DNA of 64,000 nucleotides from Candidatus Eiseniibacteriota bacterium (GTDB taxonomy: Bacteria > Eisenbacteria > RBG-16-71-46 > CAIMUX01 > VGJL01): positions 128,001 to 192,000 of the forward strand of contig JBHGAY010000003.1 in assembly GCA_041946735.1 (NCBI GenBank), given 5' to 3'. The position numbers and the translations under genes were made by a program. A model generated the notes under the pieces. The model was not told where the DNA came from. It worked only from the letters and a program-made list of their open reading frames with translations, and ran no database searches. Numbering within the stretch: position 1 is the first letter of the stretch; every line of letters begins with the position of its first letter. Shown piece by piece: positions 48,569 through 63,843 of this stretch.

Positions 48569-49084
48569 TCAGACTCTTTCGCCGTCAAGCCATGCGGCAA
48601 CCCGCGCCACCGCCACCGGCACCGCACCTGCCACGGCCGGCGTCAACTCCTCGCGGATCGTCTCGAGATCGACCGCCTCGGCGACGAGGATTGCGATCTC
48701 TTCGGGCATCGTGGCGCCCACATGCCGGCCCAGCTCGAGCGCGGTCGCGAGGTCGATCGAGTGGGATCCACCCAGTGCGCGCCCCGCGGAGGCCTCTTCG
48801 ACCCTGAGCGGGAACAGAGCGCCCGGGTGGCGCTGCCCAGTCCGGACGACATCTAGGATCAACACACGCCGGCGGCCCTGGATCAGGTCGAGCAGGTGGA
48901 AGCCGGCGACCGAGGCCTCCACGATCTCCACCCCAGGGCGCGCGGCAAGGCCCGCTGCCTCGCAAGCCCGCGCGACGACCGGCCCGAAGCCATCGTCGCT
49001 GATCAGGTCGTTACCGAGGCCGAGAACGAGAACCGGGGCGCGGACCGACTCGGCCCGAGCCCCGGTCGACGATTCCTCCGCCAT
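48569..49084 (-). CDS. Hydrogenase maturation protease
   Basis: VLGLGNDLISDDGFG; SH.IDL; last gene of the hydrogenase operon. Confidence 0.9.
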   Translation of the reverse strand: MAEESSTGARAESVRAPVLVLGLGNDLISDDGFGPVVARACEAAGLAARPGVEIVEASVAGFHLLDLIQGRRRVLILDVVRTGQRHPGALFPLRVEEASAGRALGGSHSIDLATALELGRHVGATMPEEIAILVAEAVDLETIREELTPAVAGAVPVAVARVAAWLDGERV

Positions 49085-49085
49085 C

Positions 49086-50567
49086 TCAGCAGAACCGCCG
49101 GATCGTCTCGCGCACGTCGCCATCCGGCTCATGGATCACGATCTCCATCGGCATCTTGCCGGCCGCTGCGTGCGTCGCGCATCCGAAGCAGGGATCGTAG
49201 GCGCGGAAGGCCATCTCGACCGTGTTCAGCACCTCGTCGGTGACGGCCGTCCCCTTCTTGATCAATCCGGCGGCCGCCTTCTTGATCGAGAGCGAGATGC
49301 CAGCGTTGTTGTTCGTGGTCCCGACGATCAGGTTCGCCTCCTTGATGTAGCCCTTCTCGTCGGTCTTGTAGTGGTGTGTGAGGATCCCGCGGGGCGCCTC
49401 GACGACGCCGACCCCCTCGCCGACGATCGAGGTCGGCGGCGTGTGGATCCGGTCGCTCGTGATCTCCTCGTCCTGCGCCCGCTGCGCCACGGCCTCGCAC
49501 GCGAACACCATCTCGACGACCCGCGCCCAGTGGATCGCGAGGGTGGAGTGCACCGGCTTCGCCCCGCTGCCGTCGCCGGTAAGCGTCTTGTACAGCTTCT
49601 CGTACTCCGCCTGGGCGAGCGGCGTCGCCATCCCGCCGCTCACGTTCAGCCGGCTCATCGGCGTGGCACGATAGACGCCGGAGTCGCGCCCGTCGACCAG
49701 GCCCTTCCATCCCACCTTCCTCAGATACGGGTACTTGAGATAGCTGTAGGGCAGCACCGCCTCGGCGAGGTGGTCGAGGTACTGCTTCGGCTCGTATTCG
49801 GCGAAGAGCTTGCCGTCCGGGTCGACGATCCGCACCTTCCCGTCGTAGAAGGTGACCTTCCCGTTGTCGTCGACCAGGCCGATCGAGTAGGTCTCGTGCC
49901 GGAACATGTCGGAGAGGATCAGGTCGACGTACGCTTTGTTGGCGAGGACGATCTGCTCGAAGACCCCGATCGTGGTCTTCGCGAACTCGACCATCTCCCG
50001 GCCGATCTGGATCAGCTCCTGCTGCTCCTCCTTCGTCACGCGCTTCGCCATCCCACCCGGCAGCGCGGTGACCGGGTGGATCGCCTTGCCGCCGATGATC
50101 TGCACGACGCGCTGCCCGCGCGCCCGCTGGCGGATCACCTCGGCCCCCAGCTCGAGACCGACCTTCGCCACGACGCCGAGAATGTTTCGCTGCGCCTTCG
50201 GCGCGCCCGGTCCGACGACGAAGTCGGGACCGCCGAGCGCGTAGAAGTGCGTGGTGTGATCGCCGGCGTAGAAGCCGTTGTACATCAGCTCGCGCAACTT
50301 GCGCGCCGCGCTCGGGATCGTCACGCCGTAGACCGCGTCCGCAGCCTTCACCGACGCCATGTGGTGCGCTTCGGGGCAGACGCCGCAGATGCGCGTCGTG
50401 ATCCGCGGCATCTCCTCGACCGGCCGCCCTCGCGCGAACACCTCGAAGCCGCGCAGCTCGGGGATCTGCAGGTAAGCGTTCGCCAGCTCCCCATCGTCCC
50501 CGACGAACAGGTGGATCTTGCCGTGCCCCTCCAGCCGGGTGATCGGATCGATCGTGATCTCGCGCAT
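49086..50567 (-). CDS. mvhA: [NiFe]-hydrogenase large subunit, group 3c-like
   Basis: TRLEGHG; L1 RICGVC; EAPRG; L2 AYDPCFGCATH followed by a cleavable extension. Confidence 0.95.
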   Translation of the reverse strand: MREITIDPITRLEGHGKIHLFVGDDGELANAYLQIPELRGFEVFARGRPVEEMPRITTRICGVCPEAHHMASVKAADAVYGVTIPSAARKLRELMYNGFYAGDHTTHFYALGGPDFVVGPGAPKAQRNILGVVAKVGLELGAEVIRQRARGQRVVQIIGGKAIHPVTALPGGMAKRVTKEEQQELIQIGREMVEFAKTTIGVFEQIVLANKAYVDLILSDMFRHETYSIGLVDDNGKVTFYDGKVRIVDPDGKLFAEYEPKQYLDHLAEAVLPYSYLKYPYLRKVGWKGLVDGRDSGVYRATPMSRLNVSGGMATPLAQAEYEKLYKTLTGDGSGAKPVHSTLAIHWARVVEMVFACEAVAQRAQDEEITSDRIHTPPTSIVGEGVGVVEAPRGILTHHYKTDEKGYIKEANLIVGTTNNNAGISLSIKKAAAGLIKKGTAVTDEVLNTVEMAFRAYDPCFGCATHAAAGKMPMEIVIHEPDGDVRETIRRFC

Positions 50568-50576
50568 GCTTCTGCC

Positions 50577-51548
50577 CTACCCCTGCCGCCGCCGGAGCGT
50601 CGAGCCCGGCAGGCTGAAACGGTAGAAGGTTCCCACCATGTCCGGGATCTCTCCCACGAGCCGTTCGATCTCGTCGGGATCGTCCACTGCGAGCACGCCA
50701 GCCAGCGCCGAAGCCATCTTCGCTCCCTGATCCCGCACGTTCGCCGGCAGCCCATAGCAGCCGCGGCACGGCATGTTCGCCTTCACGCAGTTCGCGCCGC
50801 ATCCGGCGCGCGTCGCAGGACCGAGACAGACGATTCCCTGCTCCAGCAGGCAGATCTCCGGGTCGGCGACGACCTCGTGCGGGCGGACGAACTTCGAGAT
50901 CTTCTTGATGTCCTTCTTGCGCGTGCACTCCTCGCAGAGCGAGCGGGCGTCGGCGCCGAGCACCGTCCCCTTGGGCGGGAGCGGCTTGCCGTTCTTCAGG
51001 ATGTCGACGACCGCGTCGACGACGAGCCCGATCTGATGCGGCTGAGGCGGGCACCCCGGAACGATGTAGTCCACGTCGACCACCTGCGCGAGCGTCCGCA
51101 CCGTGTTCCACAGGTGCGGGAGGTGCACTTTGCCTTCCGGGACCTCGCAGGTCGTCTGCGGCCGCACCTTCTCGGCGTTCACCGTCGAGGGGGAGCCGTC
51201 GTAGACGTAGTCGAGGATCTGATCGCGGGTCGTCAGGTTCGCGAGCCCCGGGATGCCGCCGTCCGAGGCGCACGATCCGAACGCGCAGAGGACGACGGAC
51301 TTCCGTCTCAGGAGCTGCGCGATCTCGTAGTTCTCGGAGTTCCGGATCGCGCCGTTCCATAGCGTCAGGGTGATCGAGCCGTCCTCCATCGCGCGCACGT
51401 CGTCGTACTTGAAGTCGGTTGCGCAGGGCCAGAAGACGATGTCGAAGAAGTCGGCGATCTCGAGGACCTTCAGCTCGGTGTCGAGGACGGCGATCTCGCA
51501 GCCCCCGCACGAAGCGGCCCAGTAGAGGGCGAGTTTCGGCTTGGCCAT
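50577..51548 (-). CDS. mvhG: [NiFe]-hydrogenase small subunit
   Basis: SCGGC, GSCA..GGIPGL, PGCPP, C..C..CLLEQG..CLGP.TRAGC..C....PCRGC. Confidence 0.93.
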   Translation of the reverse strand: MAKPKLALYWAASCGGCEIAVLDTELKVLEIADFFDIVFWPCATDFKYDDVRAMEDGSITLTLWNGAIRNSENYEIAQLLRRKSVVLCAFGSCASDGGIPGLANLTTRDQILDYVYDGSPSTVNAEKVRPQTTCEVPEGKVHLPHLWNTVRTLAQVVDVDYIVPGCPPQPHQIGLVVDAVVDILKNGKPLPPKGTVLGADARSLCEECTRKKDIKKISKFVRPHEVVADPEICLLEQGIVCLGPATRAGCGANCVKANMPCRGCYGLPANVRDQGAKMASALAGVLAVDDPDEIERLVGEIPDMVGTFYRFSLPGSTLRRRQG

Positions 51549-51569
51549 GCTTGCTTCCCCCTCTCCCTC

Positions 51570-52076
51570 TCAGGCATGCCCGGCTGGCGCATCGGCGCCG
51601 CTGTGCTCGAGCTGCTCTTCGGCCGCCACGCGGTCGAACTCGCGATCCTCGAGCTTCAGAGGCCCCAGCGCCCGGATCTGCTCGGTGAACTCGGAGATCA
51701 CCTCGGCGAACCGCGTCGCCTCGGAAGCCGAGACCCATTCGAGACGGATTCGCCGCGGATCGATCCCCATCTGCTCCGCCAGCTTCTTCGCGACCGGCAG
51801 CCGCCGCTGGCATTTGTAGTTCCCCTCGACGTAGTGACAGTCGCCCGGATGGCAGCCGCAGACGAGCACGCCGTCGGCGCCCCGCGCGAGAACGTCGAAC
51901 AGGAAGTTCGGATCGACGCGCCCGGAGCACATCACCCGGACGATCCGCACGTTCGGCGGATACTTCATTCGCGCCGTCCCGGCGAGATCGGCTCCGGTGT
52001 AGCTGCACCAAGTGCAGAGGAAACCGACCAGATTCGGTTCGAAACCATGCCGTTCGCTCGTCTTCGTCTCGCTCAT
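51570..52076 (-). CDS. mvhD: Hydrogenase iron-sulfur subunit delta
   Basis: FLCTWCSYTGADLAG, VMCSGRV, GCHPGDCHY. Confidence 0.95.
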   Translation of the reverse strand: MSETKTSERHGFEPNLVGFLCTWCSYTGADLAGTARMKYPPNVRIVRVMCSGRVDPNFLFDVLARGADGVLVCGCHPGDCHYVEGNYKCQRRLPVAKKLAEQMGIDPRRIRLEWVSASEATRFAEVISEFTEQIRALGPLKLEDREFDRVAAEEQLEHSGADAPAGHA

Positions 52077-53824
52077 GAGAGGATTCCCTCGATCTCCGCG
52101 TAGATCTGCTCGTCGGTGAAGTGCAGGCCCTGGATCGCGCCGCTCGGACAGCCGGCGACGCAGGTCCCGCAGGCCTTGCAGACCGCGGTGGTGACGGCCG
52201 ACACCTTCTTCTCGGGGTCGTAGGTGATCGCCCCGTAGGGGCAGAGGTCGTTGCACAATCGGCACCCGCTGCACAGGTTCTCGTCGATCGAGGCGCAGGC
52301 CGCGTCCATCTCCACCTCGCCGCGGATGATCAGCGACATCGCCTGCGCCGCCGCCGCGCCCCCCTGCGCGACCGAGTCGGGAATGTCCTTCGGCCCCTGG
52401 CAGACGCCGGCGAGGAAGATCCCGTCGGTCGTCGTGGAGACCGGCCCCAGCTTCGGGTGACGTTCGATGAACCAGCCGTCCGCGCCGACCGAGATGCCGA
52501 AGCGCCTCCCTGTCTCCTTCGCGTCGGCCTGGGCTTCGAGCGCCGTGCAGAGGATCACCATGTCGACCGGGATCTCCCGGAAGCGGCCGGCCAACGTGTC
52601 CTCGCAGCGGACGAGCAGGTGCCCTTCGTCCGTCCCGATCGAACGGACCACCTCCGCCCCCTTGCCGCGGATCACGTTCACGCCCTCGGTCAGGATCCGT
52701 TGGAAGAACTCCTCGTATCCCTTGCCGAAGGAGCGCATGTCGATGTAGAGCTGGTACACCTCGGCGGAGGTCTTCTCCTTGACGAGGTGCGCGAACTTCA
52801 GCGCGTACATGCAGCAGACACGGCTGCAGTAGGGATGGTGCGCCTCGTCGCGGCTGCCGATGCAGTGGAGGATCGCGATGGCGCGCGGCTCGCTGCCGTC
52901 CTCGAGAACGACCTTGCCATTGGTCGAGCCGGCGGCGTTGTTCATCCTCTCGAATTCCATCGAGGTGATGACGTTCGGCAGCCGCCCGTAGCCGTACTGC
53001 TTGAGCGGCGTCGGATCGAGATCGCGGAAGCCGGTCGCAAGCACGACCGCCCCGACTTCCACCTCCTCCGTCTCCTCGACCGCCTCGTGATCGATGCATT
53101 CCTTCGGGCAGACCTGCGCGCAGACCTTGCATCCTCCGGTGCGGAAGTGGACGCAGTACTCCGGCTGGATGTGCGGGACGTTCGGCACCGCCTGCCGGAA
53201 CGGCACCGAGATTGCCGCGTTCGGCCCGAGATGCACCTCCGGGTGGACGATCTCGCGACCCCTCGCCTCCTCCATGCGGATATGGCCGGTCGGACAGAGC
53301 GCCGCGCAAGCGCCGCAGAGGATGCAGGCGTCCGAGTCGACGGAGAACGGCGTCGTCACCGTGCGCTCGGCACCGCGCGAGGCAAAGCCGATCGCCTGCG
53401 CGCCGACGATCTCGTCGCAGACGCGCACGCACAGGCCGCACAAGATGCAGGTGTCCGTGCCCCAGCCCCAGCGCGGCTCCTCGATCCCGAGCTTCTTCCC
53501 CAGCTCGAGCAGGATCGGATGCGGCTTGCAGCGAGACATCAGCATCTCGAGGTTCAACCGGCGCGCCGCGAGAATGCGCGGGGTGTGGGTCAGGATCTCC
53601 ATCCCGTCAGCGACGGGGAAGTTGCACGCCGTGACGACACGGTTGCGCCCGCGCTTGTCGAACGTCTCGACGACGCAGATGCGGCAGGCGGCGTACGGCT
53701 TGACGTACTTGAAGAAGCAGAGGGTCGGGATCTCGATTCCGAGCTGCTCCGCAGCCTGGAGGATGTACGTTCCCTCCTCCAGTGTGATCGGGCAGCCATC
53801 GATCCGGATCGTCGCCTGGGCCAT
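52073..53824 (-). CDS. hdrA: Fusion of a NuoG/HydA/HoxU-like Fe-S N-terminus with the C-terminal half of HdrA
   Basis: IPTLC..ACRICVVE..TAC [2Fe-2S] and CILCGLCVRVC, then AISVPF.QAVP, GAVVLATGF, HCIGSRD..CSRVCCMY, G.CQGPKDIP and a C-terminal ferredoxin. Confidence 0.9.
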   Translation of the reverse strand: MAQATIRIDGCPITLEEGTYILQAAEQLGIEIPTLCFFKYVKPYAACRICVVETFDKRGRNRVVTACNFPVADGMEILTHTPRILAARRLNLEMLMSRCKPHPILLELGKKLGIEEPRWGWGTDTCILCGLCVRVCDEIVGAQAIGFASRGAERTVTTPFSVDSDACILCGACAALCPTGHIRMEEARGREIVHPEVHLGPNAAISVPFRQAVPNVPHIQPEYCVHFRTGGCKVCAQVCPKECIDHEAVEETEEVEVGAVVLATGFRDLDPTPLKQYGYGRLPNVITSMEFERMNNAAGSTNGKVVLEDGSEPRAIAILHCIGSRDEAHHPYCSRVCCMYALKFAHLVKEKTSAEVYQLYIDMRSFGKGYEEFFQRILTEGVNVIRGKGAEVVRSIGTDEGHLLVRCEDTLAGRFREIPVDMVILCTALEAQADAKETGRRFGISVGADGWFIERHPKLGPVSTTTDGIFLAGVCQGPKDIPDSVAQGGAAAAQAMSLIIRGEVEMDAACASIDENLCSGCRLCNDLCPYGAITYDPEKKVSAVTTAVCKACGTCVAGCPSGAIQGLHFTDEQIYAEIEGILS

Positions 53825-53840
53825 CGCTCCTCCTGATCCT

Positions 53841-55880
53841 CTAGACGCTCATCGACGCCGCGTCGGCTGCCGCCGACGCCGTTGCCGCCGCCTTGCGCTC
53901 CTTGACCGGTACCCACTGCTTGCGCGCGTGGTCTTGGACGATGTCCGCTTCCATCCGCTTCACGCGCTTGATCGCGTCGAACTTGCACACCTGGTAGCAC
54001 GCGTCGCACTGAATGCACTTTGCCTGGTCGATCCGGTAGAGCCCCTTCGGCTCCCCGGAGATCGCCGTGGTCGGGCACGCCGCCACGCACTGGCCGTCTC
54101 CGATGCACGCCTCGCTGATCGCGTAACCGACGAGCGCCTTGCAGACGCCGGCCGGGCACCGCTTGTCGTGGATGTGCGCGTCGAACTCGTCCCGGAAATA
54201 ACGGATCGTCGACAGTACCGGGTTCGGCGCGCTGCCGCCGAGCTGGCAGAGACTCGTGTCGATCAGCACGTTCCCGATCTCCTGCAGGGTGTCGATGTCT
54301 CCCGGCTCGCCCTCGCCCTGCGTGATCCGCTCGAGGATCGAATGGAGCATGCGAAGGCCTTCGCGGCAGGGGAGACACTTCCCGCACGACTCCTCGATGA
54401 GGAAGTGGATGAAGTACTTCGCGACATCGACCATGCAGGAGTCCTGGTCCATCACGATCATGCCGCCCGATCCCATCATCGAGCCGGCCTTTGTCAGTTC
54501 GTCGAAGTCGATCGGGAGATCGAGGAGCGACTCGGCCGCCTCGTCGACGGCCAGCTCGCCGCTCCGGACCATCGAGCGATGGATCTTCTCGTCGGCGGTC
54601 TCTACGATCAGCGTGCCCCCGGAAGGGCCACCGGTCTGGACCGCCTTGAACTTCTTCTTTCCGGGGACGCCGCCGCCGATGTCGTGCAGGATCTCGCGGA
54701 GGGTGATCCCCATCGGCACCTCGACCAGGCCTGTGTTGTTGATTCTTCCTGTGAGCGCGAAGAGCTTGGTTCCCTTGGAATTCTCGGTCCCGATCGAGGC
54801 GAACCACGCCGAGCCGTTCTCGAGGATCAGCGGGACGTTCGCCCAGGTCTCGACATTGTTGAGGTTGGAAGGCTTGTCCCAGAGGCCGAACTCGACCGTG
54901 TGGACGTACTTCGCGCGCGGTTCCCCGATCTTCCCTTCGAGCGAAGCCATCAGTGCGGTCGACTCCCCGCAGACGAACGCTCCGCCGCCCCGGCTGACGT
55001 CGATGTCGAAGGCGAAGCCGCTCCCGAAGAGATTGTCACCGAGCAGGCCCCGGGCCCTCGCCTGCTCCAGCGCAATCCGGAGGTTCTTTACCGCAAGGCG
55101 GTACTCATGGCGCACGTACACGTAGCCTCGATGGGAACCGATCGCGAAGGCGCCGATGATCATGCCCTCGATGACAGAGTGGGGATTCCCCTCCAGAACC
55201 GACCGGTCCATGAACGCCCCGGGGTCCCCCTCGTCGGCGTTGCAGATGACGTACTTCGGCTCACCCGTCGCGTTGCGGCAAGTCTCCCACTTCTTGCCGG
55301 CAGGGAACCCGCCACCCCCGCGCCCGCGCAGACCGGACGCTTTGATCTCCTCGATCACCATCTCCGGGGACATTGCGGTCAGCGCCTTCGCCGCCGACTG
55401 GTAGCCGCCCAGCGCGATGTAGTCGTCGATCGAGTTGGGATCCATCATCCGATTCTTCCCGAGGATCAGACGCATCTGCTTTTTGTAGAAGGGGATGTCG
55501 TCCTCGAGCTCGATGCGCTTCTTCGTCGTCGGATCGCGGTAGAGCAGCTTGTGGACGATCTGGCCATGCTTGATCGTCTGTTCGAAGATGAGGTCGACAT
55601 CCGCCGGCTTGATCTGCTGATAGAAGATCCCCTGGGGATGGATGACCGCAAGCGGCCCGCGCTCGCAGAAGCCGCGACAGCCGGTCAGCTTGAGACCGAC
55701 CACCTCCTCGAGCTTCTCCTCCGCGATCTTCTTGCGAAACGCGTCCGCCACCGCCTGGCAGCCGCACGCGTTGCAGCCGGTGCCTGCGCAGAGGTGGATC
55801 GAGAGGCGATTGCGGTCCTTCGCTTCGACCAAACGCGCCTGCAGCGCCTTGAGATCCTCGGGGCTCTTGATCCTCGTCAT
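53841..55880 (-). CDS. NuoF/HydB-like NADH-binding FMN subunit
   Basis: N-terminal thioredoxin-like [2Fe-2S]; GLRGRGGGGF, CNADEGDPGAFMDR, GGPSG, ESCGKC.PCREG; C-terminal 2x[4Fe-4S]. Confidence 0.95.
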   Translation of the reverse strand: MTRIKSPEDLKALQARLVEAKDRNRLSIHLCAGTGCNACGCQAVADAFRKKIAEEKLEEVVGLKLTGCRGFCERGPLAVIHPQGIFYQQIKPADVDLIFEQTIKHGQIVHKLLYRDPTTKKRIELEDDIPFYKKQMRLILGKNRMMDPNSIDDYIALGGYQSAAKALTAMSPEMVIEEIKASGLRGRGGGGFPAGKKWETCRNATGEPKYVICNADEGDPGAFMDRSVLEGNPHSVIEGMIIGAFAIGSHRGYVYVRHEYRLAVKNLRIALEQARARGLLGDNLFGSGFAFDIDVSRGGGAFVCGESTALMASLEGKIGEPRAKYVHTVEFGLWDKPSNLNNVETWANVPLILENGSAWFASIGTENSKGTKLFALTGRINNTGLVEVPMGITLREILHDIGGGVPGKKKFKAVQTGGPSGGTLIVETADEKIHRSMVRSGELAVDEAAESLLDLPIDFDELTKAGSMMGSGGMIVMDQDSCMVDVAKYFIHFLIEESCGKCLPCREGLRMLHSILERITQGEGEPGDIDTLQEIGNVLIDTSLCQLGGSAPNPVLSTIRYFRDEFDAHIHDKRCPAGVCKALVGYAISEACIGDGQCVAACPTTAISGEPKGLYRIDQAKCIQCDACYQVCKFDAIKRVKRMEADIVQDHARKQWVPVKERKAAATASAAADAASMSV

Positions 55881-55896
55881 CGTCCCTCCGGCTCCT

Positions 55897-56478
55897 TCAG
55901 GAGCGGCCTTCGGCCGCGGTGGTCGCGTGCTCCGTGCCCGCCTGTTCGGGCCTCTCCGTGTCGGCGGGGGCCGCCGAGCCGGTCGCTCCGGCGGCCCTGT
56001 CGTCCTCGCGGATCGCGGCGAGCATTTTGTCGACGTCCGACACGGTCAGATGGCCCCAGTACTTCTCGTCGGCGACGACGACCGGCCCGAGCGCGCAGGC
56101 GCCCACGCAGTTCACCGTCTCGAGCGTGAACATACCGTCCTTCGTCGTGTGGCCGCGGTCGACGTGGAGGTCGCGCTCGAGCTTCTCCACGATGCTGCGG
56201 GAGTTGCGAACATGGCAGGCGGTCCCGGTGCAGACGCATACGTGGTGCTTCCCACGCGGCTCGAGGCTGAATGCCTTGTAGAAGGTAGCTACCCCGTAGA
56301 CCTGGGAGAGGGCGAGATCCATCCGTTTGCTGATCTGCTTCATCGCCTCCCGGGGGAGGTAATAGAACTCCTGCTGGACCTCCTGCAGGATCATGATCAG
56401 CGCGGTCGGCTTCGCCTCGTAGGAGGCGATGATCTCGTCGATCCGTTCGGACATCCGATCCTGGGATTCCATCGGCAT
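55897..56478 (-). CDS. NuoE/HydC-like [2Fe-2S] subunit
   Basis: VATFY..F..PRGKH.VCVCTGTACH..NCVGACALGP. Confidence 0.94.
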   Translation of the reverse strand: MPMESQDRMSERIDEIIASYEAKPTALIMILQEVQQEFYYLPREAMKQISKRMDLALSQVYGVATFYKAFSLEPRGKHHVCVCTGTACHVRNSRSIVEKLERDLHVDRGHTTKDGMFTLETVNCVGACALGPVVVADEKYWGHLTVSDVDKMLAAIREDDRAAGATGSAAPADTERPEQAGTEHATTAAEGRS

Positions 56479-57495
56479 CTAGTCCTCCCTCACGCGCACG
56501 CCGGTGCGGCTGACGCGCGCCTCGTGCTTCTGTTCGGGGGCGAGAACGCGCGGGCTTCCTTCGCGATAGACGCGATCGCCGATCAGCATCCGACGCTGCG
56601 TCGGAAACGGGCGCGACGGGCAGGCCTCATAGCAGGTGCCGCAGCTGTTGCACTTGGTGACGTCGACGTAGCGCGGGTGCTTCTTGATCTTGACCTTGAA
56701 GTTGCCGACGTACCCCTCGACCTCCTGCACCTCCGCCATCGTCATGAGGCGGATGTTCGGGTGCTGCGCCACGGCCACCATCTTCGGCGTGAGGATGCAG
56801 GCGGCGCAGTCGAGGGTCGGGAAGGTCTTGTCGAAGTTCGCCATGTGTCCGCCGATCGAGGACTCCCGCTCGACGAGGATCACCTGGAGCCCCGCATCGG
56901 CGAGCTGAAGGGCGGTCTCGATTCCCGCGATCCCGCCACCAACGACGAGCGCGCGCGGCGTGATGTTCACGTGGCGCATCTCGAGCGGGGCGTGGAACGC
57001 GACGCGGCGGATCGCGGCGCGGATCTGCGCCGCCGCCTTGTCGGTCGCCGCGCCTCCATCGATCGTGACCCACGACACCTGCTCGCGAATGTTCGCCATG
57101 GCGAATAGGTAGCGGTTCAGACCGGCCTTCGCGACCGCCTTCCGGAACGTCGGCTCGTGCATCAACGGGCTGCACGCGGCGACGACGACCCGGTCGAGCT
57201 GCATCTCCCGGATGTCCTTCTGGATCAGCTCCTGCCCCGGGTCGCTGCACATGAATTTGTAGTCCCGCGAGACGACGACGTGCGGCTCGCTCTTCATCCG
57301 CCGCGCGACCTCGGCGACGTCGACGGTCTTCGCGATGTTCGTTCCGCAGTGGCAGACGTAGACGCCGATGCGCAGGGGACGGGACGGTGCGCGATCTCCG
57401 TTGCCGTTGCCGCTTCCCTTCCCGTTGCCGTTCCCGTTCCCTGCGTCGCCCGCACCGCCGCGTCCGTCCTGGGCGTTGCCGCTTTCGGGTGTCAT
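56479..57495 (-). CDS. hdrA: N-terminal half of heterodisulfide reductase subunit A
   Basis: IGVYVCHCGTNIA, MCSDPGQ, AACSP, NIREQ, GGGIAG, KTFPTLDCAACIL; ends after PRYVDVTKCNSCGTCYEACP. Confidence 0.93.
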   Translation of the reverse strand: MTPESGNAQDGRGGAGDAGNGNGNGKGSGNGNGDRAPSRPLRIGVYVCHCGTNIAKTVDVAEVARRMKSEPHVVVSRDYKFMCSDPGQELIQKDIREMQLDRVVVAACSPLMHEPTFRKAVAKAGLNRYLFAMANIREQVSWVTIDGGAATDKAAAQIRAAIRRVAFHAPLEMRHVNITPRALVVGGGIAGIETALQLADAGLQVILVERESSIGGHMANFDKTFPTLDCAACILTPKMVAVAQHPNIRLMTMAEVQEVEGYVGNFKVKIKKHPRYVDVTKCNSCGTCYEACPSRPFPTQRRMLIGDRVYREGSPRVLAPEQKHEARVSRTGVRVRED

Positions 57496-58370
57496 GCCGG
57501 CACCTCGCTCAGGCGACTGACGATCCGCCTGACATCGATCACCATCTGGTCGAGGAGCATCTCCTCCGCCGTGAAGCCGAGAGCGAGGCCGAGGAGCTGC
57601 GTGAAATAGACGATCGGAAGCCGGTAGGACGTCCCGAAGACCTTGTTGATCTTCTGCTGGTACGCCTCGAGGTTCATCTGGCACATGGGGCAGGTGGTGA
57701 TCAGAACTTCCGCGTCGCTCTGTACCGCCGCCTCGAGGATCTCCCGATTCAGCTTCAGCGCGACATCCTCGTAGGTCGTCATGAGCATCCCGCCGCAGCA
57801 TCGAAGCTTTGCGCTGAACGGGACGACAGCGCCACCAATGGCGGCCATGAGATTGTCGAGCTGCTGCGGGTCCTCGCGATCGTCGAACCTTCCATAGGGA
57901 CGGACGAGCTGGCATCCGTAATAGGGCGCGATGCGCACGCCGGTCAGCGGCCGGACGACCTTCTCGACGATCCTCTCGATGCCGTAGAAATCGACCAGGA
58001 TCCCGAGGGGATGGAGCACCTCGATCGATGCCTTGTAGGAGAGCCCCACGGAGGAGAGCACCTCGTTGATCTTGTCCGCGTGCTCCTCGCCCCAGCGCAT
58101 GTGCCGGTTCACCTTCGAGAGGATCGTGTAGCAGGAGCTGCAAGGGGCGCAGACGTTCATCCCCATCTTCTCGGCGTTCGCGAGGTTCCGCGCGCAGATC
58201 GAGTAGGCGGCGAGCTTGTTCATGGAGATGTAGGAGGTTGCGCCGCAGCAGTTCCAGTCGTCGATCTCGGTCAGGCCGATCCCGAGCTTCTGGAAGACGC
58301 GCCGCACCGAGACGTCATAGGGCCGGCCGGTTGCCTCGAGACTGCAGCCGGGGTAGTAGGCATATTCCAT
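57492..58370 (-). CDS. hdrB: Heterodisulfide reductase subunit B (two CCG domains)
   Basis: YYPGCS..WNCCG..C.SC; YYGC..RP..CCGG..CPMCQ.NL. Confidence 0.95.
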   Translation of the reverse strand: MEYAYYPGCSLEATGRPYDVSVRRVFQKLGIGLTEIDDWNCCGATSYISMNKLAAYSICARNLANAEKMGMNVCAPCSSCYTILSKVNRHMRWGEEHADKINEVLSSVGLSYKASIEVLHPLGILVDFYGIERIVEKVVRPLTGVRIAPYYGCQLVRPYGRFDDREDPQQLDNLMAAIGGAVVPFSAKLRCCGGMLMTTYEDVALKLNREILEAAVQSDAEVLITTCPMCQMNLEAYQQKINKVFGTSYRLPIVYFTQLLGLALGFTAEEMLLDQMVIDVRRIVSRLSEVPA

Positions 58371-58371
58371 C

Positions 58372-58968
58372 TCAGTTGTCTCCCAGCGATTCGGCTTTCT
58401 TCATGATCGCCCTCACCTCGTCGACGCGACGGATCGCCTTCGGTCTCGTCGCGAGGCGGTGGCGCCGCAACATCGTGATCGCGAAGCGTTGCAGGTCGGG
58501 GGAGAGAAGCTTCCGTGGTCCTGCCTCCAGGTAGTAGCGGAGTCCGAGCCACAGCTCCCAGTTGCGGCCGAAGCGGCGGATGTTGCCGACGAACGCTTCG
58601 GAGAGCGCGTGCGCAGGAAATGTCCGCGGAAAGACCCCCTTCTGGGCAGCCACGCGCTTCAGCGCATAGAGGTTGTCGGTCACCCGGATCCCGACGGGGC
58701 AGCGGACGGTGCAGGCGTAGCACGACGCGCAGATCCAGATCGCGCGGCTGCGCAGGATCGGCTCGAGCATGCCGGCCCGGAACAGGGCGACGATCTGCCG
58801 CGGGGTGATATCCATCGCATGGGCGACCGGGCAGGACCCCGTGCAGCTCCCGCATTGGATGCAGTTCTTGACCTTGTATCCGTCAGGGAAGGTCGCGACC
58901 TGTTCGAGATAGGCGGCACGTAGGTCCGCTTCCTTCGGAGGGATGGCGGCAAGGGCGGCGTTGGGCAT
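58372..58968 (-). CDS. hdrC: Heterodisulfide reductase subunit C
   Basis: CIQCGSCTGSCP and IWICASCYACTVRCP; GGAGG RBS before ATG 58968. Confidence 0.93.
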   Translation of the reverse strand: MPNAALAAIPPKEADLRAAYLEQVATFPDGYKVKNCIQCGSCTGSCPVAHAMDITPRQIVALFRAGMLEPILRSRAIWICASCYACTVRCPVGIRVTDNLYALKRVAAQKGVFPRTFPAHALSEAFVGNIRRFGRNWELWLGLRYYLEAGPRKLLSPDLQRFAITMLRRHRLATRPKAIRRVDEVRAIMKKAESLGDN

Positions 58969-59321: not shown

Positions 59322-59537
59322 ATGCGCAAGCAAGCCAAGAGAGGGTTACTCGAGGGTACCGAGCGCTGTCCGCACTGCCTGCAACTCCACGTCCTCGAGC
59401 AGGAGTACCGCTGCGTCCTCTGCGACGGGCCGGTCTGTCCCTTCTGTGTCGTGATCGAGGAGGGCGCCCAGGACATCCTCTGCCCGAGCTGCAGCGACGC
59501 CGAGCGACGAGGAAGAGGAAAGCCGCATGCCGGCTAG
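59322..59537 (+). CDS. Small Cys-rich zinc-finger protein
   Basis: AAGGAG RBS; CPHC, CVLC, CPFC, CPSC; overlaps the ku start by 11 bp. Confidence 0.7.
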   Translation: MRKQAKRGLLEGTERCPHCLQLHVLEQEYRCVLCDGPVCPFCVVIEEGAQDILCPSCSDAERRGRGKPHAG

Positions 59538-60306
59538 AGCGATCTGGAAGGGTGTGCTCGCGCTCGGCGACGACATCGAGCTGCCGGTCAAGCTCTACTC
59601 CGCGGTGCAGGACCGCACGGTCCACTTCCGTCTTCTCGATTCGAAGGACCGCCAGCCGGTCGCTCAGGAGATGGTCGAGCCAGAGACGGAAGAGGAGGTC
59701 GCTGCCAAGGAGATCCGGAAGGGGGCCGAAGTCGAGCCGGGCGTGTTCGTTCTCCTGAAGGACGACGAGGTCGAGAAGCTCGAGCCGCCCGCCTCGCGAA
59801 TCATCCAGATCGAGCGGTTTCTCAACGCCGGAGAGATCTCCCATCTATGGTACGAGCGGCCCTACTACCTCGGTCCGGACGAAGGGGGCGATCGGGAGTA
59901 CTGGGACTTCGTCGAGGCGTTGGAGCGGACGGAGAAGGAGGGAGTCGCACGCTGGGTCATGCGGAAGAGACGCTATCTGGGCTCGCTCAAGGCGATCGAT
60001 GGTTTCCTGATGCTGATCACCCTTCGGTTCGCGGACGAGGTCATCACAGCGGAAGATCTTACCCCCCCACCCGGTCGCGATCTGGACGCCAAGGAGGTGA
60101 CCATGGCGCGCCGGCTCGTGGAGGCGATGGCTGGGGAGTTCGACCCCGGGGAGTTTCATGACGAGTTCCGCGCACGGGTCCTCGAGCTGATCGAGGCAAA
60201 GAAGAAGGGAAAGAAGATCCGCGCGAGAAAGCCCGAGCGCAAGCCGCGCCCCGAGTCGCTGGCGGGCGCTCTGCAGGCGAGCCTGGCGGCGGCGAGGAAG
60301 CGATGA
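59527..60306 (+). CDS. ku: Ku protein (NHEJ), copy 1
   Basis: RAIWKG..PVKLYSA; ERPYYL.P; TLRFADE; FDP.EF.DE. Confidence 0.92.
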   Translation: MPARAIWKGVLALGDDIELPVKLYSAVQDRTVHFRLLDSKDRQPVAQEMVEPETEEEVAAKEIRKGAEVEPGVFVLLKDDEVEKLEPPASRIIQIERFLNAGEISHLWYERPYYLGPDEGGDREYWDFVEALERTEKEGVARWVMRKRRYLGSLKAIDGFLMLITLRFADEVITAEDLTPPPGRDLDAKEVTMARRLVEAMAGEFDPGEFHDEFRARVLELIEAKKKGKKIRARKPERKPRPESLAGALQASLAAARKR

Positions 60307-60349
60307 TCTCCGCGGCGATACCGCCCCGTGAAGGATCGAGGAATCCCTG

Positions 60350-61387
60350 ATGCCGGCGAAGAGAGCGCAATCGAAGACGGGAAGAGACGCGGGCGCCGCC
60401 CGGGCGTCGCGCGCGAGAGCGAAGAGCAAGCCGGCGCGTGCTCGCAAGACAACAGCGAGTCGTGCCGGTTCGCGGCGCGATCCCGAGAGGCTGCGCAAGC
60501 CGCCGCGCCGGGCCGGCAAGTCGTCCCGGGAGACAACGGCATCGAAGGCGGCGGCGGGAGTCGACCGGGCCGCCGCTGTTCGCCTCGACGAAAATCCGGA
60601 GGAGTCGACGGCGCCGCGGCCGATCTGGTCCGGGGCGATCAGCTTCGGCCTGGTCAACGTCCCGGTGAACCTGTTCCCGGCATTGCGCCCTCACGGCGTG
60701 CACCTGCGCATGCTCGATCCCTCCGGGACGCCACTCAATCGCCGCTACGTCTCCTCGAACAGTGGCGAGCCGATCGATCCGGATCATATCGTGAGGGGCT
60801 ACGAGGTCGAGAAGGGGAAGTTCGTGCTCGTCAGCGACGAGGAGCTCGAGGCTCTCGAGCCGCAGCGATCGCGCGAGATCGATCTCCGCCGCTTCGTCGA
60901 CGTCTCGACGATCCCGCCCTACTACTTCGAGCGTCCGTACTTCCTGACTCCGGCCGGCCGCAGCAACAAGGCGTACCGCCTCCTTGCGGCGGTGATGGAG
61001 AAGGAGGGAAAGGCAGGCCTCGCCACCTTCGTGATGCGGGAGAAGGAGTATCTCGTCGCGATCCTCTCGGACGGCGGGATCCTGCGCGCTCAGACGCTGC
61101 GTTTCGCGGACGAGATCCGCCGCCCGCAGGATGTTGGCCTTCCGGAGCGGAAGCCGGCGCGGGCGAAGCAGGTCGCGAAGATCGGAAAGACGATCCGCGA
61201 CCGCACGAAGTCGCGACTTGCCCGGGAGGATCTGGGCGACGACGTCACCGCCAAGCTCGAGAAGCTGATCGAGAAGAAGGTCGCACAGGGACGCGACATC
61301 GTGACGCTCGAGGCGACACCGGAGTCGAAGGCGGAGTTCGTCGATCTGATGGAGGTCCTGAAGCAGCGGATGCGGGGAGCGGCGTGA
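60350..61387 (+). CDS. ku: Ku protein (NHEJ), copy 2, with basic N-terminal extension
   Basis: RPIWSGAISFGLVNVPV; RGYE; ERPYFL.P; KAYRLL; TLRFADE; VDLMEVLK. Confidence 0.92.
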   Translation: MPAKRAQSKTGRDAGAARASRARAKSKPARARKTTASRAGSRRDPERLRKPPRRAGKSSRETTASKAAAGVDRAAAVRLDENPEESTAPRPIWSGAISFGLVNVPVNLFPALRPHGVHLRMLDPSGTPLNRRYVSSNSGEPIDPDHIVRGYEVEKGKFVLVSDEELEALEPQRSREIDLRRFVDVSTIPPYYFERPYFLTPAGRSNKAYRLLAAVMEKEGKAGLATFVMREKEYLVAILSDGGILRAQTLRFADEIRRPQDVGLPERKPARAKQVAKIGKTIRDRTKSRLAREDLGDDVTAKLEKLIEKKVAQGRDIVTLEATPESKAEFVDLMEVLKQRMRGAA

Positions 61388-61390
61388 GGC

Positions 61391-62776
61391 TCATCGCAAG
61401 CGGTAGCCTCGAATCTTCCGCCAGAGCGTCTTCCTGTCGATCCCAAGCAGCGCCGAGGCGCGCCCGAGACGCCAGCCCGTCAAGTCCAGCACCTTGAGGA
61501 TGTGCTGCGACTCGAGGGTGGCCAGCCGCAGATCGCTCGCGTCCCCGCCGTCCGTCTCGGTGGCCGGCGCCCCTCCCCGCATGAAGTGGAGATCCTCCGA
61601 TCGGATCTCCGGCCCCTGGGCGAGCACGAGGGCACGCTCGAGCGTGTTCTCCAGCTCTCGAACGTTGCCGGGCCAGTTGTAGGCCTGCAACGTTTCGATG
61701 CACTCCGCCGACAGTCGTTTCAGCTCGAGCAGTTTGCGCTCGCACAACCGCCGGACGAGAACCGTAGCTAGGGACGGAATGTCTTCTCGCCGGTCGCGCA
61801 ACGGCGGCACCTCGATCAGCACCACGCTCAGCCGGTAGAACAGATCCTCGCGAAAGCCGCCGGCGGCCATCGCCGCGCGCAGATCGCGGTTCGTCGCGGC
61901 GAGAATCCGCACGTCGACATGCACCGGCTCGCTCCCCCCCACCTTCGTGACCTCGCGCTCCTGGATCACCCGCAGGAGCTTCGTCTGGATCGTGGGCGTG
62001 AGGTTGCCGATCTCGTCGAGGAAGATGGTCCCGCCATGCGCCAGCTCGAAACGGCCGGGACGTGTCGACACGGCTCCCGTGAAGGAGCCGCGGACATGGC
62101 CGAACAGCTCGCTCTCGAAGAGCGTCTCGACGATCGCGCCGCAATCGACCGTCAGGAACGGCTTCTCGCGCCGCGCGCTCGCCCGATGGATGGAGCGCGC
62201 CACCAGCTCCTTGCCCGTTCCGCTCTCGCCGAGGATCAGGACGGTGGCGTCGGTCTGCGCGACGCGCTCGACCCATCCTCGGAGCTGCTCGATCGCTCGG
62301 CTCTCGCCGGTCAAGACCTCGGCATGCGCTTCCTCGCGGATTTGCTCCTTGAGCGCCCGGTTCTCGAGCGAGAGCGCCCGCTTCTCCAGCGCCCGGCCGA
62401 CCACGAGCCGGAGGGAGTCGGCGTCGAACGGCTTCGGCAGGTAGTCGTACGCTCCGAGGCGCATGCACTCCACCGCCGATCCGACGCTCGAATATCCCGT
62501 GATGACGATGACGTCGAGGTCGGGAGCGTCGCGATGGAGCCGTTCGAGCAGCGTCATTCCGTCCATGCCCGGCATCTTCAGATCGAGGAGGACGAGATCG
62601 AGCCGGTCGTGCTGGACCTTGCGCAATGCTTCGAGGCCGTCGCGCGCCGTCTCGACCCTGTAGTTCGAGCGTTCCAGCGCCTGCCGGCAGGAATCCCGGA
62701 TCCCCTCTTCGTCGTCGACGACGAGGATCGTTCGCTGCGGCTCCATTCCTCCTCCTTCGGGTAGCCGAGCGCTCAT
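61391..62776 (-). CDS. Sigma54-dependent response regulator (NtrC/AtoC family)
   Basis: Receiver (VVDDE, LLDLKMP), GESGTGKE, ESELFGH.RGSFTGA, WPGNVRELEN, Fis-type HTH. Confidence 0.95.
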   Translation of the reverse strand: MSARLPEGGGMEPQRTILVVDDEEGIRDSCRQALERSNYRVETARDGLEALRKVQHDRLDLVLLDLKMPGMDGMTLLERLHRDAPDLDVIVITGYSSVGSAVECMRLGAYDYLPKPFDADSLRLVVGRALEKRALSLENRALKEQIREEAHAEVLTGESRAIEQLRGWVERVAQTDATVLILGESGTGKELVARSIHRASARREKPFLTVDCGAIVETLFESELFGHVRGSFTGAVSTRPGRFELAHGGTIFLDEIGNLTPTIQTKLLRVIQEREVTKVGGSEPVHVDVRILAATNRDLRAAMAAGGFREDLFYRLSVVLIEVPPLRDRREDIPSLATVLVRRLCERKLLELKRLSAECIETLQAYNWPGNVRELENTLERALVLAQGPEIRSEDLHFMRGGAPATETDGGDASDLRLATLESQHILKVLDLTGWRLGRASALLGIDRKTLWRKIRGYRLR

Positions 62777-63843
62777 ACCGGCGCGACGTCCGGCTCGACG
62801 GGGAGCAGGACGCGGAAGGTCGTCCCGCTTCCGGCGGTCGACTGCGCCTCGATCTCCCCACCATGTTGCCGGACGATTCCGTAGCTGATCGAAAGTCCGA
62901 GGCCGACGCCCTCGCCGACCTCCTTCGTCGTGAAGAACGGCTCGAACACCCGAGGCAGATGCTCCTCGGGAATCCCGACTCCGGTGTCGGTGAACGCGAC
63001 GCGGCAGAATCCGTCACGCTCCGAGAAGCCGCTGCGGATCGTGAGCGTCCCGCCATGAGCGCGCATCGCGTCGAGGGCGTTCATCAGGACGTTCAAGAAC
63101 ACCTGCTGGATTTTCTGGACGTCGATCCGCACCCATAGAGGGACCGGGCTGAGCTCCTTGCGGAGCTGGACGTTTCGCCATCCCGGATGGCGTTCGACGA
63201 GCGCGAGCGACTCGACGAGGACCTGGTTCAGATCGACCCGCTCGATGCGAGGCGGGTTCTGCCGCGCGAAGTCGAGCAGGCCGCGGACGATCTCCTTCGC
63301 CCGGCTAGCCTGCCCGACGATCTTCTTCATGTTCTCGTAGCGTGGATCGTCGGGCTGGGTCGATTCGACGAGGAGATTGCCGTAGAGGAGGATGCCGCCG
63401 ATCGGATTGTTGATCTCGTGCGCGACGCCGGCCGCGAGCTGCCCGACCGTGGCGAGCTTCTCGGACTGCTGCAAGCGCTCCGCCGCGCGGAGGCGAGCTG
63501 TTTCGTCCCGCACCTGGAGCGAGGAAGCCATGCGGTTCAAGGCGGCGGCAAGCGGGCCGAGGCGCGCGAGGCGGGGACCGTCGATACGGTACTCCAGCTC
63601 ACCGCGACCCCAGCGACTCGCAGCGCGGATGAGCGGCTCGTCGGACACCACGGCGGCTCGACGGAGCAGCAACACCGGCAGGGCGCAGGCCACCGCGGCG
63701 AGCCCAGCGGCGCAGAGCCACCCTGCCGGATGCCCGCGAAGGAAGGGGGAGAGGATCCACGCCAGCAGCACGAGGACCACCGGCGGGAGCAGGAGCGCTC
63801 CCCAGGTCCTTGCCGAAATGCGCGAACCGAGCGGCCCATCCAT
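62773..63843 (-). CDS. Sensor histidine kinase (HAMP, NtrB-like)
   Basis: Two TM helices; GVAHEINNP; QVFLN..NA.DA; DTG.GI; FEPFFTTK; G.GLGL. Confidence 0.93.
   Translation of the reverse strand: MDGPLGSRISARTWGALLLPPVVLVLLAWILSPFLRGHPAGWLCAAGLAAVACALPVLLLRRAAVVSDEPLIRAASRWGRGELEYRIDGPRLARLGPLAAALNRMASSLQVRDETARLRAAERLQQSEKLATVGQLAAGVAHEINNPIGGILLYGNLLVESTQPDDPRYENMKKIVGQASRAKEIVRGLLDFARQNPPRIERVDLNQVLVESLALVERHPGWRNVQLRKELSPVPLWVRIDVQKIQQVFLNVLMNALDAMRAHGGTLTIRSGFSERDGFCRVAFTDTGVGIPEEHLPRVFEPFFTTKEVGEGVGLGLSISYGIVRQHGGEIEAQSTAGSGTTFRVLLPVEPDVAPV

Follow-up and report, generated by a model that had tools for sequence, protein, structure and literature searches.

A divided HdrA encloses a Bfu module in a bacterial HdrABC-MvhADG operon: a possible tandem electron-bifurcating hydrogenase

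Results

A ten-gene operon with HdrA encoded in two pieces

The window analysed here is a stretch of 64,000 nucleotides of contig JBHGAY010000003.1 from a Candidatus Eiseniibacteriota bacterium. Ten genes lie head to tail on its minus strand, from 58968 to 48569, in the order hdrC-hdrB-hdrA(N)-bfuC-bfuB-bfuA::hdrA(C)-mvhD-mvhG-mvhA-protease. The operon holds all six genes of the HdrABC-MvhADG set. HdrA is encoded as two open reading frames (ORFs) of 338 and 583 amino acids (aa) and not as a single polypeptide with an intact inserted ferredoxin. The genes between the halves, together with the first part of the second ORF, encode a module of the Bfu (HydABC) type. The layout is conserved and apparently undescribed. 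Its features, all on the minus strand, are as follows.

58372..58968, hdrC, 2[4Fe-4S] subunit, 198 aa (TIGR03290 and NF041779 matches under the equivalog cut-off; Fer4_8)
57492..58370, hdrB, CCG-domain disulfide-reducing subunit, 292 aa (two CCG stretches; TIGR03288, E 3e-59; Cys motifs)
56479..57495, hdrA N-half, 338 aa (5ODC_A residues 5-271, E 2e-99; HdrA2 profile 1-255)
56617..56652, motif W (CNSCGTCYEACP), orthologue of motif 1 in HdrA's inserted ferredoxin
55897..56478, bfuC, HydC/NuoE-like [2Fe-2S] thioredoxin fold, 193 aa (PF01257, E 2.5e-51)
53841..55880, bfuB, HydB-like subunit for flavin mononucleotide (FMN) and NADH, 679 aa (PDB matches and ligand counts)
52073-53824, whole fusion bfuA::hdrA(C), 583 aa
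53270..53824, BfuA domain of the fusion, residues 1-185 (collinear with 9MQX_A 7-186)
53449-53417, motif X, in the BfuA domain
53326-53291, motif Y, in the BfuA domain
52073..53230, HdrA C-half of the fusion, residues 199-583 (8RVU and 5ODC alignments; 76/76 conservation)
53155-53105, motif Z, motif 2 of HdrA's inserted ferredoxin, in the HdrA C-half
51570..52076, mvhD, [2Fe-2S] adaptor (PF02662, E 3e-55)
50577..51548, mvhG, hydrogenase small subunit (NF045875, E 4e-61)
49086..50567, mvhA, group 3c [NiFe] large subunit (VhuA, E 3e-118)
48569..49084, hydrogenase maturation protease (PF01750; TIGR00072 over the cut-off)

The gene order and strand agree with the original prediction, made from the letters of the window, and are supported by ORF, domain and profile matches. 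The predicted gaps of at most 16 bp hold except between mvhD and mvhG, where 21 bp make the largest intergenic gap in the operon. The L1 (RICGVCPEAH) and L2 (AYDPCFGCATH) motifs of MvhA agree with the patterns ICGxCxxxH and AYDPCxxCATH and with the Mvh motifs of PMC6085437.

The original prediction had raised the possibility of misassembly. Sequencing run X2, which belongs to another study, has a contig over 50361-55173 and a second over 56367-56833, so that both breaks are bridged; none spans the whole stretch. Because these contigs bridge both junctions and 65 of the 66 informative loci described below are alike, the split layout is not a misassembly. Raw-read run X8 covered the stretch too thinly for use. 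Short joints near 52816-53417 in this run comparison, with sides of 21-38 letters, were taken as HdrA of other organisms.

HdrA is broken within its inserted ferredoxin domain

Alignment of both halves to methanogen HdrA confirms the predicted split inside the inserted ferredoxin domain. Against 5ODC the N-half aligns over residues 5-271 and the C-half from about 268 onward; on the HdrA2 profile the N-half takes positions 1-255 and the fusion 262-640, so that the halves tile HdrA without a gap. The break falls at about 5ODC 261-268, in the loop that follows motif 1 of the inserted ferredoxin. The N-half contains the N-terminal cluster domain, the first half of the domain for flavin adenine dinucleotide (FAD; GGGIAG, DKTFPTLDC), motif W and a conserved tail, which matches the earlier description of GGGIAG and TLDCAAC followed by CNSCGTCYEACP (56652-56617). 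After this motif come a 45-aa tail, a TAG stop and, immediately, the ATG of bfuC. The C-half contains ferredoxin motif Z, the remaining FAD domain, the HA4 ligands and the C-terminal 2[4Fe-4S] region. The last ferredoxin motif of the BfuA domain had been thought to run directly into AISVPF, but a linker of about 20 residues separates it from LGPNAAISVPF, where HdrA homology restarts.

In the alignment, E292 and K343 of the fusion correspond to E356 and K409 of 5ODC, a pair proposed in PMC12054007 as a mark of bifurcating HdrA. Both residues and all cluster cysteines are kept in 76 of 76 full-length fusions, these being the best 80 loci of the survey described below minus four that are cut or frameshifted. 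The two halves are complementary and are predicted to reassemble.

The gap holds a Bfu module

The best PDB matches of BfuB are 8A6T_B, 7T2R_B and 9MQX_B (E ≤1e-221, compared to 1e-109 for complex I), all chains of bifurcating HydB/BfuB. The subunit has an N-terminal [2Fe-2S] site, B1, the ligands of the B2 site and a C-terminal 2[4Fe-4S] region. The Bfu core is defined in PMC9304861 by clusters B1-B5 plus C1, and the B2 ligands are named there; C482, T520, H569, C575 and C580 of BfuB map to C438, C476/T, H525, C531 and C536. For BfuB and BfuC, ligands were counted in 66 of the 76 rows, ten being left out as partial or fused. C482, H569, C575 and C580 are kept in all 66, and the variable B2 position is Thr, Cys or Ser. 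The B1, B3 and B4 ligands are likewise present throughout except at one B3/B4 position (Cys in 57 rows, Asp in nine), where the window has D595, and the N-terminal B5 cysteines vary in six rows. All four ligands of the C1 [2Fe-2S] cluster of BfuC are found in 66/66.

The BfuA domain carries A1 [2Fe-2S] and A2/A4 2[4Fe-4S] motifs, and the A3 motif is absent. It is collinear with WorA of 9MQX (7-186), has a template-modelling (TM) score of 0.70 over 9MQX_A and, folded alone, reaches a pLDDT (predicted local distance difference test) score mostly of 84-95. The insert had been labelled NuoEF(G)-like. The extra BfuB clusters and a G-like part of only 185 aa do not fit NuoEFG, the N-module of complex I, and by its cluster ligands the insert is a Bfu (HydABC-type) module, not a Nuo fragment. 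Both bifurcation centres retain their signature residues, as anticipated (K343/E292 in HdrA; the BfuB ligands).

Four ferredoxin motifs meet at the junction

Motif W lies in the N-half and motifs X, Y and Z in the fusion. Alignment to 5ODC identifies W as the true HdrA motif 1, and X and Y, with a GF..RG...V.TPF spacer, are BfuA's own pair, collinear with Wor-BfuA. Motifs X, Y and Z are invariant in 76/76 fusions and the W cysteines in 56/56 rows, aligned from 62 full-length N-halves plus the window. The suggested recombination between ferredoxin motifs does not agree with this arrangement, in which the N-half keeps HdrA motif 1 and the C-half is preceded by motif 2 of the 2[4Fe-4S] domain that belongs to BfuA. 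Since all four motifs are kept, the event was a loop insertion, not a motif swap. In the simplest use of the four, X would pair with Y in one chain and W is predicted to pair with Z across chains. In halves folded alone, pLDDT is 48-66 in the Z region and 46-50 in the W region, which fits half-domains without their partner.

The layout recurs in many phyla

The full fusion is present in 3 of 40 relatives at 78-83% identity. Three of 150 other genomes in a phylum sample match the junction (E ≤1e-40), so the layout has a patchy distribution. Of 355 related stretches found in a scan of species genomes, the best 80 were kept; the choice was by similarity to the fusion, so these loci speak for consistency and not for prevalence. 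All named records are metagenome-assembled genomes, with titles that refer to Acidobacteriota, Ignavibacteria, Zixibacteria, KSB1, Calditrichaeota, Eisenbacteria, Eubacteriales, Planctomycetota and others. The breakpoint is the same across many phyla, down to about 51% identity.

A separate upstream N-half is visible in 66 of the 80 loci; of the other 14, 13 lie on contigs that stop short of it and one gene contains a stretch of N. This survey, proposed with the original prediction, shows the same layout in 65 of these 66 informative loci, with both module genes between the halves: directly in 43, and behind more than 2.5 kb of extra genes in 22. mvhD follows within 1.8 kb downstream in 68 of the 76 loci with room for it, and mvhG and mvhA lie on the same strand in 64 of those 68. 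Three Acidobacteriota loci (L096, L104 and L107) have an in-frame TGA at mvhA codon 64, the second Cys of the L1 motif; selB scores over the cut-off in these genomes, and selenocysteine at this Ni-site position is therefore possible. In L082 and L093, bfuB is about 1,000 aa long, extended by an apparent GltD/Nfn-type flavoprotein domain, and in L098 bfuC is fused to bfuB.

The extra genes in the gap encode DRTGG, CBS/anti-sigma ATPase, Fe-S and PHP proteins, a kinase and a separate small subunit, which we take to be the accessory set of hyd/hnd operons. On contig C71 of the window's genome, part of the same set stands ahead of the Bfu locus as well. Together these observations suggest that a whole operon was inserted and later trimmed. 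The exception among the 66 loci, L076 (L076:7959-10755), has a split HdrA without bfuC or bfuB between the halves. Its BfuA domain keeps the cysteines but is only 46-50% identical to relatives, compared to 73-81% for the HdrA part; in its closest sisters the values are 77-83% for BfuA and 79-82% for the HdrA part. BfuA thus diverged quickly without bfuCB, and is therefore held by its Bfu partners. The best BfuB of the L076 genome groups among non-split rows.

Trees were quick or FastTree trees of 39-41 chosen split rows. In the C-half tree L028, whose HdrA is intact, is placed among the split rows, yet it has the canonical loop. Reversion of the split was rejected on this ground; L028 is therefore an unsplit relative, and the L038 C-half is probably a mosaic. 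Exchange between split and intact copies is suggested by this grouping of the L038 fusion C-half with unsplit HdrA. A plasmid search returned a single partial match, to ordinary HdrA.

A second family with an insertion in the same loop

In genome G036 (L143:2969-13338) a double-type HdrA is broken in the same domain, giving an HdrA(N)::BfuC fusion, a BfuA fused to the remainder of HdrA, and then mvhD(GA). A metagenome scan found the HdrA(N)::BfuC fusion in 80 of 80 kept loci (L151-L230); bfuB is next in 60 of these, and the visible bfuA runs into HdrA in 29 of 30. The C-part keeps the PN..N.GL loop that is lost in the window's family, the HdrA type differs, and BfuA groups apart with modest support, from which we infer a separate insertion. 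The comparison suggests convergent insertion into the same loop. Extra ferredoxin domains occupy this loop in two unsplit double-type HdrA (L145:3197-6901 and L147:8106-11840). With the second family and the GltD of type III HdrA, these mark the loop as a recurring attachment site.

Other arrangements were seen alongside. An unsplit double HdrA-mvhD-bfuCBA cluster (L148:6030-14189) has a Bam-like order and no fusion. BfuA is fused to an aldehyde:ferredoxin oxidoreductase domain at L146:5831-7828 and to a ferredoxin plus MvhD-like domain at L144:7113-9062.

Genome context

The same genome carries a second, intact hdrC-hdrB-hdrA set with a 417-aa MvhD-domain gene (C5:2076-6765, L024), additional Bfu loci on C8 and C71 and, on C1, a further NiFe hydrogenase. 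At C31:24843-27169 (L109) a gene for a two-cysteine DsrC stands beside two others, one small and membrane-like and one resembling DsrK/TmcB. The genome, 94.8% complete, gave no match to DsrAB (PF01077) or Rnf (PF03116).

Upstream of the operon, two tandem Ku-domain genes lie at 59527-61387 on the plus strand, and beyond them a sigma-54 response regulator and a kinase at 61391-63843 on the minus strand. Within 450 bp upstream of hdrC, a sigma-54-like site was found in 9 of 41 related loci and not in the window, and a TGTGA-N6-TCAC palindrome in 7 of 41, the window not being reported among them.

Discussion

Proposed electron flow

We think it fairly probable, judging from the gene content and the fusion site, that the operon encodes one soluble MvhADG-HdrABC-BfuABC complex in which the output of Hdr feeds Bfu, which in turn splits electrons to NAD+ and ferredoxin. 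In methanogen structures the low-potential electron passes from FAD through HA3, HA5 and HA6 to MvhB or FmdF at the inserted ferredoxin (PMC12350162, PMC13580544). The fusion site and these structures agree with the original view that the module is attached at the HdrA branch through which low-potential electrons normally leave. The entry route in Wor-Bfu is A4-A2-A1-B1 (PMC12318220), and according to PMC9304861 NAD+ and ferredoxin are still reduced only jointly when the input is of low potential. If these known paths are connected where the fusion is seen, electrons would pass from H2 through Mvh to HdrA FAD, and from there to the disulfide and, through Bfu, to NADH and ferredoxin.

H2 electrons would enter via MvhAG and MvhD to HdrA FAD, which would send one electron to HdrCB for the disulfide and one via HA3 to HA5/HA6 of the inserted ferredoxin. 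W and Z would jointly bind HA5/HA6 across the two chains, with HA6 placed beside A4 of BfuA. Bfu, at the low-potential exit, would take up these strongly reducing electrons, and a second split would send them to NAD+ and ferredoxin. The net reaction, which would be reversible, is 4 H2 + 2 RSSR + NAD+ + 2 Fd(ox) → 4 RSH + NADH + 2 Fd(red), where RSSR is the disulfide, RSH the thiol and Fd ferredoxin. The two-cysteine DsrC of the genome is a candidate disulfide partner.

With potentials from PMC9304861, the computed equilibrium H2 partial pressure is 0.9 Pa, whereas Hdr-Mvh alone comes to 67 Pa and a NiFe-Bfu enzyme to about 15,600 Pa (RSSR at -140 mV). The gain of about 70-fold over Hdr-Mvh alone is unchanged with RSSR at -200 and -280 mV. 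With NAD+ averaged in, the H2 pressure still permitting ferredoxin reduction would be about 70-fold lower.

Alternative readings

Several points weigh against this scheme. The input to Bfu is normally of mid-potential. For a module inserted at this site, the flow proposed in PMC12054007 runs the other way, with NADH in and H2 out. The low pLDDT of W and Z could equally come from the shallow 56-row alignments. As Zn occupies the B2 site in several Bfu structures (PMC12318220), the B2 ligands are no proof of bifurcation. The split can persist without BfuBC, as in L076. No isolate record was seen among the ten clusters looked up, and thus no cultured carrier. Finally, the BfuB tree needs four label changes and the C-half tree three, each with two forced by starred branches. 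The N-half tree needs two, one of them forced, and the BfuA tree one, at support 46. A single origin of the split family is therefore compatible with the N-half and BfuA trees, not supported by BfuB or the C-half, and not proven.

The ports may instead be reversed: Bfu would combine the electrons of NADH and reduced ferredoxin at mid-potential and pass them to HdrA via the inserted ferredoxin, and FAD would split them to the disulfide and Mvh, with H2 as a product. This is the flow that PMC12054007 proposes where GltD sits within the same domain and mvhADG is adjacent; BamGHI serves as a confurcating module on the input side (bioRxiv 10.64898/2026.04.10.717634), and the direction is thermodynamically downhill at the PMC9304861 potentials. 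We nevertheless consider it unlikely, since HA3-HA5-HA6 is the output and MvhD the input in solved Hdr complexes (PMC12350162, PMC13580544), MvhD and the C-terminal ferredoxin are conventional in the window's operon, and the type III HdrA flow is itself only a proposal. Another reading keeps a single bifurcating site and makes the Bfu-like module a plain NAD+ reductase (a Hox-like diaphorase), or an optional branch beside free ferredoxin, yielding thiol and NADH from H2. The Asp at one B3/B4 Cys position and the varying B5 cysteines speak for it, as does the report that NADH alone reduced 68% of isolated BamGHI (bioRxiv 10.64898/2026.04.10.717634). However, non-bifurcating homologues are described in PMC9304861 as having no B2-B5, ligands that are kept here, the nearest structural relatives are all bifurcating enzymes, and spending -500 mV electrons on NAD+ alone would waste the coupling; a single site seems to us rather improbable.

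There is very little likelihood of a misassembly, or of an hdrA in decay that a passenger operon has interrupted and whose products form no joint complex. The genome does have a second, intact hdrA, and the whole hyd-type accessory cassette in the gap of 22 of the 65 loci is what an operon insertion would leave. Against this stand the independent contigs across both junctions, the shared breakpoint in distant phyla, the invariant catalytic residues and the in-frame joining of BfuA to HdrA(C).

Going beyond the window, it is conceivable, if somewhat short of an even chance, that complexes wired from H2 through HdrA to Bfu form a widespread, undescribed class of tandem electron-bifurcating hydrogenases. 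Such a class would be a mirror image of class II benzoyl-CoA reductase (BCRII) with a two-chain 2[4Fe-4S] ferredoxin, would have arisen on at least two occasions, each time by a Bfu operon entering the same HdrA loop, and would enable bacteria of sediments and soils to produce ferredoxin and NADH from H2 at close to 1 Pa. BCRII is the only characterised complex with two unrelated bifurcation modules, whose coexistence was unreported before according to its 2026 preprint (bioRxiv 10.64898/2026.04.10.717634). If the proposal is true, the operon would add a second, oppositely wired tandem case that is genetically compact and has simple substrates (H2, NAD, ferredoxin). With it one can test directly which HdrA port takes electrons in and which lets them out, and whether bifurcations can be chained; it may also shed light on how uncultured anaerobes manage on trace H2. 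The database label of the fusion is ‘heterodisulfide reductase subunit A’ or ‘4Fe-4S dicluster protein’, and genome-based metabolic models therefore miss it.

Comparison with known systems

Our literature search found no account of a split HdrA with a Bfu insert; most subscription papers lie outside it, and an earlier mention is possible. The available parts of PMC7325909, PMC5736913 and PMC6085437 do not describe the layout, and those of PMC9304861 contain no Hdr- or Mvh-fused Bfu type, nor its supplement text an Hdr entry.

The operon shares with MvhAGD-HdrABC of methanogens (5ODC, 8RVU; Fmd supercomplexes) the six subunits, the group 3c motifs, the HdrA cluster ligands and K409/E356. The methanogen output also leaves from the inserted ferredoxin, where FmdF or MvhB dock. 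In the window, by contrast, HdrA is two genes, the output partner is a fused Bfu and not a polyferredoxin, and the host is a bacterium. Clade-45 style Bfu (Wor-BfuABCSL, 9MQX; PMC9304861) has the same BfuBC core ligands, a BfuA like WorA without A3, and the partner next to A4; here, however, the third-reaction domain on BfuA is half of another bifurcating enzyme. Type III HdrA, as presented in PMC12054007, also places an NAD(H) module within the inserted ferredoxin domain, with mvhADG in the cluster (Bathyarchaeota). It is one polypeptide with an FAD-type GltD, archaeal, and known from nine sequences, whereas the window has a split gene and, in place of GltD, a Bfu module of several genes that is of the FMN/Fe-S type and brings a ferredoxin arm of its own.

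BCRII (BamBCDEFGHI; bioRxiv 10.64898/2026.04.10.717634) also combines HdrA-type and HydBC-type modules in series, with a BfuA of A1, A2 and A4 only. None of the ten operon genes encodes its tungsten BamBC catalytic module. In BCRII, BamGHI is on the input side via the MvhD-like BamF, and E3/E5/E6 lead to the catalytic BamBC. In the window the sequence would put BfuA at the inserted ferredoxin and not at the MvhD-like adaptor, so that the hydrogenase would be on the input side and Bfu on the output side of an HdrA that is itself split and fused.

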